Source: Candidatus Magasanikbacteria bacterium RIFOXYC2_FULL_42_28
Lineage (GTDB): Bacteria; Patescibacteriota; Patescibacteriia; Magasanikbacterales; GWA2-37-8
DNA length: 64,000 nt
Assembly (NCBI GenBank): GCA_001784435.1
Contig: MFQZ01000010.1
Coordinates: forward strand, 18,917 to 82,916
Reading direction: 5' to 3'
Part shown: positions 29,351 to 63,209 of the stretch, one piece after another
How the letters are laid out: each line of letters begins with the position of its first letter
How positions within the stretch are numbered: position 1 is the first letter of the stretch
The notes under the pieces: generated by a model
The model's input: the letters and a program-made list of their open reading frames with translations, nothing else
Databases searched by the model: none
Told to the model about the DNA's origin: nothing
Translations under genes and position numbers: made by a program

Positions 29351-31096
29351 ATGGACAAAGAACAACTCGAACACCTGCGCCACTCCTGCGCGCACCTACT
29401 CGCCGCGGCGGTTTTGGAATTGTATCCAAACGCTAAACGCACCATTGGTCCGGCGATTGAAAACGGTTTTTATTATGATTTTGATTTCGGGGTGGAGAAA
29501 ATTTCGGAAACAGATTTGAAAAAAATAGAAGAAAAAATGCGCCAAATTGCTCCCACTTGGGAAAAATTTGAACGTCAAGAAGTTAGCGCTAGCGGAGCGA
29601 AAGCTGTTTTTAAAGACAATGAATATAAAATAGAATTAATCGAAGAATTTAGCGTTGACGGGCAAGCGCTTACTTTGTATAAATCCGGCGCTTATGTGGA
29701 TTTGTGCCGCGGTGGGCATAGCGAGAACCCGAGCAAAGAATTAAAACATTTTAAATTATTGTCGGTGGCGGGCGCGTATTGGCGCGGGAGTGAAAAAAAT
29801 AAAATGTTGACGCGTATTTACGGCACTTGTTTTCCGACTAAAAATGAATTGTATGAGCACTTACATCAATTGGAAGAAGCCAAAAAGCGCGATCATCGTA
29901 AAATCGGCGCCGAGCAGGAATTATTTTGTTTTGATGATCGCGTGGGTAAGGGCCAAGTTTTGTGGTTGCCAAACGGCACGATAATTCGTAATGAAGTGGA
30001 AAAATTAACTATAGAAAAAGAATCTGAAGGCGACTATCTGCGCGTGCGTACGCCGCACCTCGCCAAAGAAGAATTATTTTTGACTTCCGGGCATTTGCCG
30101 TATTACAAAGACAGCATGTATCCGCCCATGGTAATGGACGATGGCAACTACTATCTGAAAGCGATGAATTGCCCGCATCACCACACCATTTATAATTTTA
30201 AACCGCACAGTTATCGCGAGTTGCCGCTCCGTTTGGTAGAATATGGTGAATGTTTTCGCAATGAATTGTCCGGCACTTTGGCTGGGTTACTCCGCGTGCG
30301 TGCGATGGCGATGAATGACGCGCATATTTATTGCCGTAAAGAGCAAATTAAAGACGAATTTAAAAGCGTGATGGAACTGGTGATGGAATATTTCCGAATT
30401 TTCAAATTGGAAAATTATTGGTTTCGTCTTTCCAAATGGAGTCCGGATCATTTGGATAAATATATCAACGAACCGGAAAATTGGCAATTTAGCGAGGGGG
30501 TGATTCGGGAGGTGTTACAAGAAATGAAAGTAAAATTTGTGGAAGCCGCGGACGAGGCGGCGTTTTACGGACCGAAGGTAGACGTGATGTTTAAGTCGGT
30601 TATCGGACGCGAAGAAACCATGTCCACTATTCAATTGGATTTCGCGGCGAAAAAGCGTTTTGATTTAAAATACACCGATTCTGATGGCAAAGAAAATAAC
30701 GAGGTGTTTGTGATTCACCGTGCGCCACTGTCAACCCACGAACGGTTTATGGCGTTTTTAATTGAGCATTTTGCCGGTGTTTGGCCGGTCTGGCTCTCAC
30801 CCGTGCAAGTACTCTTCGCGCCGGTGGCGAGCGCGCACGTGGAAGGCGCGAAAAAATTAGCCGGTGAATTTAAAGTTGCCGGCATTCGCGTAGAGACCGA
30901 TGACGCGGACGAAACTGTTGGCAACAAAGTGCGCAAAGCCGTTGGCCGGAAAATTCCGTATATTGTCGTAGTGGGGGATAAGGAACTCGCGGGTGGCGAA
31001 TTAATGGTGCGCGTGCGCGGAGAAGAAAAACCGGCGAAATTTGTGAAAGAAGAATTTTTGGCAAAGGTGGTGGGGGAGATTAAAGCGCGGACGTAA
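29351..31096 (+). CDS. thrS: Threonine-tRNA ligase (lacking the N-terminal TGS domain)
   Basis: RHSCAHLL, DLCRGGH, RDHRKIG, KAMNCPHH, AAFYGPKVD and IHRA motifs. Confidence 0.98.
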   Translation: MDKEQLEHLRHSCAHLLAAAVLELYPNAKRTIGPAIENGFYYDFDFGVEKISETDLKKIEEKMRQIAPTWEKFERQEVSASGAKAVFKDNEYKIELIEEFSVDGQALTLYKSGAYVDLCRGGHSENPSKELKHFKLLSVAGAYWRGSEKNKMLTRIYGTCFPTKNELYEHLHQLEEAKKRDHRKIGAEQELFCFDDRVGKGQVLWLPNGTIIRNEVEKLTIEKESEGDYLRVRTPHLAKEELFLTSGHLPYYKDSMYPPMVMDDGNYYLKAMNCPHHHTIYNFKPHSYRELPLRLVEYGECFRNELSGTLAGLLRVRAMAMNDAHIYCRKEQIKDEFKSVMELVMEYFRIFKLENYWFRLSKWSPDHLDKYINEPENWQFSEGVIREVLQEMKVKFVEAADEAAFYGPKVDVMFKSVIGREETMSTIQLDFAAKKRFDLKYTDSDGKENNEVFVIHRAPLSTHERFMAFLIEHFAGVWPVWLSPVQVLFAPVASAHVEGAKKLAGEFKVAGIRVETDDADETVGNKVRKAVGRKIPYIVVVGDKELAGGELMVRVRGEEKPAKFVKEEFLAKVVGEIKART

Positions 31097-31109
31097 AATT
31101 AATAAAATA

Positions 31110-31142
31110 AAAAAACACCGAAGCGATTTGCTTCGGTGCTTT
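31110..31142. terminator. Bidirectional intrinsic terminator
   Basis: aaaaaacaccgaagc-gattt-gcttcggtgcttt. Confidence 0.8.
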
Positions 31143-31145
31143 AGT

Positions 31146-31681
31146 TTAAAATACTAAAGGGATGGGCGGCATGGTGAGCGAGAACCTGCCGTCCCATCCG
31201 CAGGCGCGCGGGGGGGGGGTGGGTATCTCGGGAACGGGGGGCTATCGGCGGTAGCGCACGGAGACGCGCCGCCCCTTCCACTGTGTGGGGTGGGCGCCGC
31301 GCCTGCTTTCAGCAAGGCACTGCACCTGCCCCCAGCCAGCGCAGTTCTTCAGGAACAGGGCTTCGTTGCCGAAGCCAATGATGAGCTCCTTGGCAGTAGG
31401 CACCTGGCCCTCCCACTTGTCCAGGAAGATCGAGTGGCCGCCGCTGGCGACGACCACGGCGCTGACGACCTCTACCTCCACGCCCCCCCACACTTTTCTT
31501 TGGCGAACTTCTCGCCCCCGTTACAGGCTGAGAGGATGGCGATGGTCAGGGCGATGATGGGGCTGTTGTTGTTGTTCATGTTGGCATATCTCCAAAATGG
31601 CCCACGCAGGGCCGTGTGTCAGCCGGATTCAGGGTCGGCTTATCCCCAGGGTGGTCATGCCACCTCTCTTTAGTATTTTAA
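31146..31681. other. GC-rich cassette bounded by inverted repeats
   Basis: ttaaaatactaaaggga (31146-31162) matches the reverse complement of 31665-31681 at 16 of 17 positions. The interior is about two-thirds G+C (40/60 in 31441-31500). Confidence 0.8.
31242..31579 (-). pseudogene. Lipoprotein-like gene frameshifted at a G7 tract
   Basis: GGAGA SD, then MNNNNSPIIALTIAILSA-C lipobox. The frame stops at 31472; one extra G at 31483-31489 would join it to the GC3-biased ORF ending at 31242. Confidence 0.55.
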
Positions 31682-31744
31682 TGTTATTTTAAATGAGCTT
31701 TAGAAATTAATCTTTTTGTCTATCTTAGGCAAAAAGATTAATAA

Positions 31745-31772
31745 TCTTAGCACATTTTTGGCGTTTTGTCAA
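31745..31772 (-). promoter_or_regulatory. Sigma70 promoter pointing into the GC-rich cassette
   Basis: TTGACA-aaacgccaaaaatgtgc (17)-TAAGAT, followed by the palindrome attaatctttttg...caaaaagattaat. Confidence 0.7.
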
Positions 31773-31791
31773 GACCACGCCGCTCGCGCTT

Positions 31792-32556
31792 TCATTTTTT
31801 TAATCTTGCCATGATTGATTTTAAAAATTTATCCGGATGGATTTCTATTTCTTTTATTGCGCTTCTTTCTTTGTATCCGATAATTTTGTCATTTTCGTCA
31901 ACTATTATTGTTTTTGGTTTTGATCCTGGCAAAATAATTTCTTTATCTTTGCCAATAAATTTAATTTCTTCATTTTTAATTACGAGTGCTTGTTCGTCGG
32001 TTAATAATCTGACGAGTAGCGGTTGTTGTTTGGCTTTTTCTTTTATCGCATCCAACATGTCGGGAGTGTAATGTGCCTTGATCAAAAATGGCACCCAGTT
32101 CATGGCGGTAAAATTAGTAATGCCGTACCTGTCTTTGCCTTTTTCAATCCAGGTGGACATAATAATTGACGGGCAAGCGATATACGATCCGGCACTCACG
32201 CCAATGTAAATCACGCCTTGGGCGATCAAATCTTTTGCAACTTCGGCAAAGCCACTTTTACGCACGCATTTTAACAAATAGAAAGTATTGCCGCCGCCCA
32301 TAAAAATAATATCATACCCGGTCAATATTTTTTTCAATTGAGTTTTTGTTTTTCCGGCGATATCAATTTCAGCATAATTCCAACCCAGCTCGTTGAAGCG
32401 GGCGCGATGACGTATTAAATAATTACCCGATGTGGATTTTTGTCCGGCGGTAATAATAAAAGCGATTTTGCAATCCTTTAATTTTTTGGGCAAATATTTA
32501 TCAATGTTTTTGCTGGTGATAAATTGGGTGCTGCTGGCGAGGATAAGGGTAGACAT
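31792..32556 (-). CDS. Peptidase E (S51) / class I glutamine-amidotransferase-like protein
   Basis: IFMGGGNTFYLL, YIGVSAGS and the IKAHY catalytic His; extra C-terminal tail. Confidence 0.88.
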   Translation of the reverse strand: MSTLILASSTQFITSKNIDKYLPKKLKDCKIAFIITAGQKSTSGNYLIRHRARFNELGWNYAEIDIAGKTKTQLKKILTGYDIIFMGGGNTFYLLKCVRKSGFAEVAKDLIAQGVIYIGVSAGSYIACPSIIMSTWIEKGKDRYGITNFTAMNWVPFLIKAHYTPDMLDAIKEKAKQQPLLVRLLTDEQALVIKNEEIKFIGKDKEIILPGSKPKTIIVDENDKIIGYKERSAIKEIEIHPDKFLKSIMARLKK

Positions 32557-32561
32557 AAAAA

Positions 32562-32939
32562 TTAAAAATAACTCAACCCATCGCGACTTTCGCGTTTAGT
32601 CATTTCGGCTTGATACGCCGGGTCGTAAATTTGGATAATTTTAAATTTTCCGGAAGTGGTAGCGGTGTTATCGGCGTTGCACTTAATTGTTTGTTCCACG
32701 ATGAAAACATGGCCCCAGTATAACCATTTGCCGCCGATATCCTGTACCAAAAAACAGCGCGTCGTCGGCCGGTGGTAAATTCTGGCGTCGGGCTTATCCT
32801 TAAATTCAAAAATTTTATCAGCCACTGTCGCTAATTGAATCGGCTTGGTGCGATGTTTTTCTAAATTCAAAATTTCGGCCGGAAAACCTTGTTCGGCAGT
32901 GATGCGTAGTGCATCGTTTATTTCTAGATAAGATCCCAT
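32562..32939 (-). CDS. Hypothetical protein
   Basis: Tight operon spacing and plausible composition (GKWLYWGH, TTSGKFKI). Confidence 0.75.
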   Translation of the reverse strand: MGSYLEINDALRITAEQGFPAEILNLEKHRTKPIQLATVADKIFEFKDKPDARIYHRPTTRCFLVQDIGGKWLYWGHVFIVEQTIKCNADNTATTSGKFKIIQIYDPAYQAEMTKRESRDGLSYF

Positions 32940-62129: not shown

Positions 62130-63209
62130 TCAAATCCTCCCATAATTCGCTCCATCCATTTTTCTGATTACGCTTTTTAATTCTAACATCGTCAATAGTC
62201 CGTTGACTTCGTGGCTCGGCAGTCCGGCAGTTTGGATAATGGTATCAATATTTTTGGATTCGGTTTCTAACAAATTATAAATAATTTTTTCTTTGTCAGT
62301 CAGGAGTGGTAGAGCGGTTTGGGTAACTTCCGCTTCGGCGCTGGCGATGTTTAGCGTTTCTAAAATGTCATTGGCGCTTGCGGTTAAGTGCGCACCTAAT
62401 TTTATCATTTCGTTTCCGCCGGCGCCCTGTTCGGAATTGTAGAGGTGAGGCACGGCAAAAACTTCGCGGTTGTAATCAAGCGCCAGTCGCGCGGTAATTA
62501 AAGCGCCGGATTGGATGGGTGCTTCGACCACGAGTGTGCCGAGGGTTAGTCCGGCGATAATGCGATTGCGCATCGGGAAATTGGCTTTGGAAATAAACGC
62601 GTCCGGCGAATATTCCGAAAGCACGGCGCCCCCTTCGGCAATAATTTTTTCCGCGAGATATTTGTGGGTGGGCGGGGACACCATTTCGGTCGCGCAACAA
62701 GTGCCCAAAACGGCGATGGTAGTTCCTTTGACATCTAATGTGGCTTGGTGCGCCACGCCGTCAATGCCGAGCGCCAGGCCACTGACAATAACCACACCTT
62801 GCGTGGCCAATGCTTTCGTGAGTTCGCGCGCCGCTAATTCGCCGTAGGGGGTAGAGTGGCGTGTGCCGACGACAGCGACGGCTGGCCGTTCCCAATCGGG
62901 CAGAGTGCCACGATAAAACAGAGCGAGTGGGGCATCGGGAATTTGCCATAACAGCGGGGGATAGCCCGGGTCGGTAAGCGCGAGCGCGGAGAGGCCGTTT
63001 TTTTCCAGGGCGGTAATAATTTTATCAATGGAATTTTGTTCGCGCCAATTTAAATAATCAACAATGATTTGTTCTTCCCAACCCACCCGTTTTAAATCCG
63101 TCAATTCCCATTTTTGCCAATCCTCCAAATTCAAAAAGCCGCCTTTTAATTTGTTAAAGCGGCCACGGGAAAGTTTGGGGAAGTGGACGAGGTAGATGAG
63201 AGGGTTCAT
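62130..63209 (-). CDS. dprA: DNA-processing protein DprA
   Basis: YPPLL..IPDAP, AVVGTR, VSGLALGIDG, FPMRNRIIAG and SGALITA. Confidence 0.97.
   Translation of the reverse strand: MNPLIYLVHFPKLSRGRFNKLKGGFLNLEDWQKWELTDLKRVGWEEQIIVDYLNWREQNSIDKIITALEKNGLSALALTDPGYPPLLWQIPDAPLALFYRGTLPDWERPAVAVVGTRHSTPYGELAARELTKALATQGVVIVSGLALGIDGVAHQATLDVKGTTIAVLGTCCATEMVSPPTHKYLAEKIIAEGGAVLSEYSPDAFISKANFPMRNRIIAGLTLGTLVVEAPIQSGALITARLALDYNREVFAVPHLYNSEQGAGGNEMIKLGAHLTASANDILETLNIASAEAEVTQTALPLLTDKEKIIYNLLETESKNIDTIIQTAGLPSHEVNGLLTMLELKSVIRKMDGANYGRI

Follow-up and report, generated by a model that had tools for sequence, protein, structure and literature searches.

The locus raises the question of what a GC-rich gene cassette, wrapped in AT-rich expression signals, represents in the genome that carries it, and whose ribosomes it is written for. 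The window, a stretch of 64,000 nt corresponding to C10:18917-82916, belongs to genome G000 (1.15 Mb, 41.9% GC, 97% complete), a member of the host-dependent Patescibacteria (CPR), as shown by a different G000 protein whose close homologs carry the name Candidatus Magasanikbacteria. The cassette lies between a threonyl-tRNA synthetase-like gene on the plus strand (29351..31096), which we take to be thrS, and a convergent peptidase S51 gene on the minus strand (31792..32556, from the Pfam scan). As stated in the first-pass annotation, no transposase or integrase is found nearby, either among the open reading frames read between 24 and 39 kb or among the five neighbours scanned with Pfam. The assembly check that this annotation had called for came out in favor of the published sequence. 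Run X1, which may be the source sample, yields a Logan contig of depth 31.6 that covers 30731-32600, both junctions included, gap-free and with a single differing letter; a second study (X4) contributes 166 nt identical to 31574-31739 across the AT/GC junction. A chimeric assembly is ruled out. The X1 contig differs at position 31220, where the C-rich trailer run (31211-31223), interrupted in the window, becomes unbroken through either an error or a variant. The peptidase S51 open reading frame appears to end (31792-31930, minus strand) in what is left of a NUDIX-type gene after fusion and internal deletion, a gene that is longer in G001. A second, mildly GC-rich patch of the window (62600-63000) falls within an ordinary 364-aa open reading frame, presumably DprA-like as judged by eye, and holds no cassette.

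Read on the minus strand, the cassette presents its promoter, palindrome, arms and terminator at the places first described. The sigma70-type promoter (31744..31772) is a consensus match composed of TTGACA (31772-31767), a 17-nt spacer with a TG extension and TAAGAT (31749-31744); its look-alikes at other G000 loci point to the genome's own promoter style. A palindrome with perfect 13-bp arms (31742-31730 and 31718-31706; overall 31706..31742) covers the predicted start site and is predicted to act as an RNA 5' hairpin or as an operator. It is followed by a degenerate BoxA-like site (31687..31698) with two mismatches to GYTCTTTAANA, by arm 1 of a long-range stem (31656..31681) and by a leader (31580..31655) in which the Shine-Dalgarno (SD) sequence GGAG (31593-31590) precedes the ATG by 10 nt. 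Downstream of the coding region are a C-rich 3' trailer (31174..31241), arm 2 of the closing stem (31146..31173) and an intrinsic terminator-like hairpin (31109..31142) usable in both directions, which is common to the cassette and the convergent thrS and on the plus strand reads as the thrS terminator. The unit thus has its own promoter and its own terminator, both recognized as consensus matches. The GC-rich interior comprises 482 nt at 64.7% GC vs. 41.9% for the genome, so the description of AT-rich host-type signals around a GC-rich expression cassette holds, and further units of this kind, referred to below as the class, occur in G000.

The first-pass annotation had likened the layout to an rRNA processing stem. 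Folded in isolation, the two arms form a duplex over 26 positions that contains G-U pairs and bulges (-32.5 kcal/mol), in agreement with the approximately 26 bp proposed. A perfect 14-bp helix at the same geometry was obtained in 0 of 4000 random genomic draws, and a duplex as strong as -32.5 kcal/mol in 3 of 4000 such draws and 0 of 3000 shuffles. When the whole predicted transcript is folded, the predicted arm-to-arm pairing is confined to the 14 AT-rich bp on the outside (p 0.7-1.0); the inner part of arm 1 is predicted to bind positions 31544-31530, within the part that encodes the signal peptide, and otherwise can pair with arm 2, and the inner part of arm 2 forms its own local hairpin with trailer positions 31199-31187, an alternative pairing also foreseen, which folds at -25.0. 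Against dinucleotide shuffles, the fold z-score is -3.6 from arm to arm, -1.0 for the coding part and -0.2 for the interior. One could read the significant end-to-end helix, together with the presence of RNase III in G000 (where nusB lies directly upstream of rnc), as the mark of a non-coding or circularised RNA that RNase III cuts free of an rRNA-like stem, or of a non-autonomous inverted-repeat element. The succession of 5' hairpin and BoxA-like site likewise resembles the B. subtilis rrn layout (PMC13753749). However, this reading is highly improbable, as the unit carries a clear coding signature, its interior is not folded beyond shuffles, no Rfam family matches the cassette at gathering score, its arms are single-copy in G000, and the closing stem is found in this cassette alone among 21 class units, which were hand-picked on SD and the GC content of third codon positions (GC3). 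The Rfam result also disposes of a known structured non-coding RNA. A MITE or similar non-autonomous element is likewise not supported, with terminal repeats that are single-copy in G000 and none in 99 family genomes, and neither is the suggested family of stem-bounded mobile or circularised elements. The 19-mer of arm 1 has five matches in genome_contigs, about the level of chance, none of them with a partner arm. With one unit in 21, the closing stem is discarded as a class feature, and it looks like one way to protect RNA ends rather than a defining trait.

The cargo is better described as a broken protein gene than as the featureless or non-coding RNA that was initially considered. Its 5' part (31472..31579, minus strand) starts at an ATG (31579) preceded by an SD and by C at -1, and encodes a signal peptide with the lipobox L-S-A-C (31534-31523), which we recognized by eye; as the sequence stands, a stop is reached after 35 codons. 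At a run of seven G (G7; 31483..31489), which has the same length in the X1 contig, the coding frame shifts, and the 3' part continues in the shifted frame for 82 aa (31242..31489, P0001). GC3 is 0.83 in frame 0 before the G7 and, beyond the run, 0.87 in frame +2; codon likelihood selects the same two frames, with the class model beating the core model in both parts. The cargo therefore reads as one gene of approximately 112 codons that is out of frame at the G7, and its product is predicted to be a small orphan lipoprotein, a hydrophobic signal and a lipobox cysteine both being visible on inspection. The 3' part found no homolog in a word search, no usable match in the Atlas and no match among metagenome loci, viral loci, phages or plasmids; a profile search returned eight weak matches in long repetitive proteins, and the two inspected were both judged spurious. 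The G7 may represent a phase-OFF state or a recent loss of the gene. Phase variation of surface proteins through simple sequence repeats is a familiar phenomenon, and the poly-G tract resembles it in shifting the frame just after a lipoprotein signal. However, the G7 is short, and it is the only tract length seen, without an in-frame variant, in the one covering contig (X1), a type of sequence that drops rare variants. Programmed -1 frameshifting at the G7 was judged unlikely by eye, no stimulator being present at the usual spacing, and heavy folding of the coding RNA is rejected as the cause of the high GC content of this gene (z -1.0). As the gene is both orphan and broken, the cargo's membership of the class is a matter of style; for the same reasons, the single cassette is a poor experimental handle.

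That style is distinct from the style of the core genome. Core genes of G000 carry an SD-like 4-mer at only 8 of 290 confident starts, and 84-89% of them (89% at confident starts) have T at -1 before the ATG. When starts are chosen blind to the SD, an SD of at least 5 nt is no commoner before core genes than in shuffles (15 of 988 observed, 15.8 expected), whereas it precedes 11 of 36 high-GC3 genes against 2.3 expected. Thirty-six windows of the genome reach at least 58% GC, and the strongest of these hold GC-rich open reading frames behind AT-rich leaders. Codon preferences are reversed between class and core in most two-fold families, and GC3 in the class ranges from about 0.6 to 0.97 within this one genome. 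The cassette shares this pattern, with an SD before the start, a base other than T at -1, high GC3 with class codons, and its own promoter and terminator. Judged from such signals, the cargo is one member of a G000 class that numbers roughly 20-35 GC-rich, SD-led units. In the full-text literature searched, mostly open access, no paper was found on such a class or on CPR mRNAs translated by a host.

A second shared feature is BoxA. With at most one mismatch allowed, the published consensus GYTCTTTAANA (PMC5725501) is present in the leaders of 9 of the 21 class units, against 20 of 781 for core genes and none on the 21 reverse strands; the BoxA idea of the first-pass annotation thus has statistical support for the class, the cassette's own site being degenerate with its two mismatches. 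In another genome, G365, a variant near-identical to that of the cassette lies behind a class-gene promoter. Strong folding is seen in the trailers, terminators included, of 10 of 12 units and in the leaders of 5 of 12; the coding RNA itself reaches z of -2.5 or lower in six of 12 class genes other than the cargo. The nearest likeness is offered by rrn leaders and E. coli suhB (PMC5725501; PMC13753749), combining a leader BoxA, a 5' hairpin before it, a long-range stem, nusB and rnc. The CPR class differs in consisting of protein-coding accessory genes, in a genome where Rho was not found with two profiles, and the cassette's putative BoxA is degenerate. At one locus (L040, C4 26.3-32 kb), four class genes form an array with a BoxA-like site before each and a near-identical 180-nt trailer present twice. 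Four others (L044, L045, L049 and L051) hold unrelated class genes whose 3' trailers have a conserved motif in common directly ahead of the terminator, a possible packaging, recombination or stability element. Another locus (L005 1537-1825; C1 about 209085-209375, plus strand) has a native promoter, approximately 270 nt of structured sequence with no obvious open reading frame, and a terminator; it has no Rfam match, has a 12-nt motif in common with the stretch just before arm 1, and is a candidate unannotated non-coding RNA.

The age of the class bears on whether its members are recent arrivals. A family that we presume to be C-type-lectin-like is present in 33 of 101 genomes of the order; GC3 is at least 0.6 in 21 of 29 scorable loci (30 in total), and an SD of at least 4 nt occurs at 26 of 29 loci vs. 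136 of 798 core genes, the best start having been picked in the same way for both. A SAM-hydrolase-like family, whose named close relatives are Magasanikbacteria, is present in 12 of 151 genomes and exists within the order in two styles: six core-style copies (GC3 0.24-0.40, T at -1) and six class-style copies (GC3 0.53-0.84, purine-rich ribosome-binding site, BoxA-like site in four). In G000, the class-style gene of this kind is preceded by a SAM-I riboswitch and then a BoxA (L045 187-286, C10 about 111.6 kb); in relatives, another conserved leader precedes the core-style copies, with no Rfam match in the two scanned. As the class style is held across the order at 25-55% identity in both families, neither is a fresh import, and both are long resident in CPR lineages. 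One further class gene (L042, C3 53300-54420, minus strand) is accompanied by a downstream template repeat, with 15 of 16 differences at template adenines, and is on this pattern identified as the target of a diversity-generating retroelement (DGR).

These observations have to be weighed against a pool of mobile cassettes or horizontal imports of the moron or islet type, in which DNA moves among CPR, phages and hosts, and SD and GC content are either leftovers or functional only in some recipients or after entry into a host. Phage morons and genomic islets are autonomous promoter-gene-terminator units between core genes, and the cassette is like them in its autonomy, its foreign composition and the patchy distribution of the class. 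The slot 3' of thrS differs among relatives, 3 of 19 of which (L013, L014 and L024) hold unrelated GC-richer, SD-led units there, as judged by eye. In the nearest relative it holds other genes, and no alignable empty site was seen; the DNA of the cassette itself has no match in 99 family genomes. The 3' trailers common to unrelated open reading frames and the patchy, non-syntenic occurrence of homologs would also suit such a pool, and one study documents gene transfer in Patescibacteria, mostly between members of the group, as well as genomic islands (PMC12455944). However, the class has no phage context and no donor was found; the tested families are CPR-centred or orphan, and phages and plasmids gave no match. 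Nor would imports be expected to keep one style over such deep divergence, to carry lineage-specific leaders and a native-style promoter, to be GC-richer than the genome, to include a member under DGR diversification, or to retain SDs where the resident 16S cannot read them. A mobile pool is therefore unlikely as the explanation of the class. For the cassette in particular, a phage moron was rejected, its neighbours being thrS and the peptidase S51 gene and the phage and viral collections giving no match.

Whose ribosomes read the class is a question that G000 cannot settle, as its 16S keeps an intact anti-SD. Other CPR are more informative. In published surveys, the anti-SD motif is reported in only 48% of Parcubacteria (PMC9297842), and some CPR are listed as SD-scarce and lacking the CCUCC core (PMC10783764). 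Among 301 genomes surveyed across the phylum, the 16S end was seen in 179 and the full motif in 126; 53 seemed to lack the anti-SD, and of 23 tails read among these, 15 keep CCTCC, four are altered and four have lost it. The label anti-SD-less is limited here to the last four (G365, G215, G348 and G441), the tails of which cannot pair with an SD (-0.5 to -2.8 kcal/mol vs. -10 to -12.6 for G000). In G365, represented by 252 kb, an SD precedes 13 of 17 high-GC3 genes vs. 16 of 237 core genes, and G348 and G215 also have strong-SD accessory genes; G441 (100 kb) has no high-GC3 genes, and in two further genomes, G361 and G422, an SD is found at 0 of 6 high-GC3 genes. CCTCC is absent from all 42 tails read in the 61-genome family of G365, with a search pattern that may miss tails ending in C or G. 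Lectin-like homologs of this family, at 30-59% identity, nonetheless have an SD at the first ATG in 8 of 9 full-length copies from eight genomes, three short or broken matches having been dropped and 16S tails read for five of the eight. BoxA occurs with at most one mismatch in 6 of the 9, most of which have a common promoter-BoxA-hairpin leader. Their neighbourhoods differ and are not syntenic, which fits a circulating cassette pool. The GGAG motif peaks at -12 to -9, and a CsrA-type reading of GGA is set aside, as CsrA is absent from the five genomes tested. Where SDs are kept although the cell's own 16S cannot pair with them, the simplest reading is that the ribosomes of another cell read them, and the earlier suggestion that the cargo is tuned for a high-GC host gains support from this test.

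A further argument for host ribosomes comes from the envelope. An orphan class protein (L039 480-1019, minus strand) resembles outer-membrane beta-barrels in the Atlas according to language-model features (0.97), its structure model being poor (pLDDT 41). Omp85/BamA was found in 0 of 301 CPR genomes, and PF13505 in one of the 301, other than G000, where the matched stretch looks unrelated to the class. A barrel-like protein in bacteria with no detected Omp85 is more readily understood if the protein is made and inserted elsewhere. Against this, G000 could itself translate and lipidate the cargo protein, having an intact anti-SD, no detected bS21, and both Lgt and LspA; dependence on host lipidation is accordingly ruled out. 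The same features favor an in-cell second mode of initiation, by which SD-led, BoxA-controlled accessory genes would be translated on the parasite's own ribosomes, for example at one life stage, with the stem stabilising or gating the mRNA. The class gene under a SAM-I riboswitch would fit such control, as would the use of the SD on few genes only in Flavobacteria (PMC7797042) and the expectation that Patescibacteria regulate differentiation at the level of translation (PMC11665869). However, this mode cannot account for canonical SDs that persist in a family with 16S tails unable to bind them, nor does it say why codon preferences should be reversed or why a barrel-like protein should occur where no BamA is found; we consider it rather unlikely. 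The comparison with Bacteroidetes bS21/bS18 (PMC7797042) is instructive in both directions. There, too, core genes lack the SD, the anti-SD is kept and a strong-SD minority exists; the CPR minority, in contrast, runs to dozens of genes, accessory and envelope-type in character and distinct in codon use. SD use in Flavobacteriia covaries with altered anti-SDs, whereas in the CPR class the canonical SD persists after anti-SD loss.

Taken together, the present data allow a model in which the cassette is a self-contained transcription unit and the class mRNAs are made by the parasite and read by host ribosomes, to which we assign a probability of roughly 0.45. Its fuller form is tentative, with the odds somewhat against it: that these are dedicated host-dialect genes, equipped with BoxA and protected ends and delivered as mRNA effectors between bacteria, and that the cassette is a phase-variable envelope member. 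We infer every step of this model, from transcription to host translation. The parasite's own polymerase would transcribe the unit from its native promoter, and it is this promoter style that favors delivery of RNA rather than DNA. BoxA could then recruit NusB-S10, keeping local ribosomes off the message and helping its ends to fold, in the manner reported for rRNA and for suhB of E. coli; a BoxA in the 5' UTR is reported to repress translation (PMC5725501). A good BoxA in only 9 of 21 units and a degenerate copy in the cassette weaken this step. End structures, here the long-range stem and elsewhere long local hairpins, may protect the RNA, which would pass to a high-GC, SD-using, probably Gram-negative host, possibly via a VirB4/TraG-type secretion system, and the translated protein would end up in the host envelope. 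The spread in GC3 within one genome is wider than a single host would suggest. The present cassette copy would be in an off state or a recent loss. All five genomes examined have a TraG/VirB4-type ATPase, and the role of the essential CPR type IV secretion system is described as completely unknown (PMC11665869).

mRNAs that move between plants and fungi and are translated after transfer provide a cross-kingdom parallel. Closer to CPR, intron RNA of the epibiont Ca. Velamenicoccus has been seen in dead prey cells of Methanothrix (PMC13153191), a precedent for epibiont RNA reaching another cell. That case differs in concerning a non-coding intron in dead cells, with neither translation nor a gene class.

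How Patescibacteria manipulate their hosts is an open question, and it is here that the class has its bearing. If the host-ribosome reading is true, candidate effectors could be listed for any CPR genome from the combined signature of SD, GC3 and BoxA, and the codon use of the class would hint at CPR hosts that are not yet known. Under the rival explanations, the class would still represent a genome with two translation dialects.
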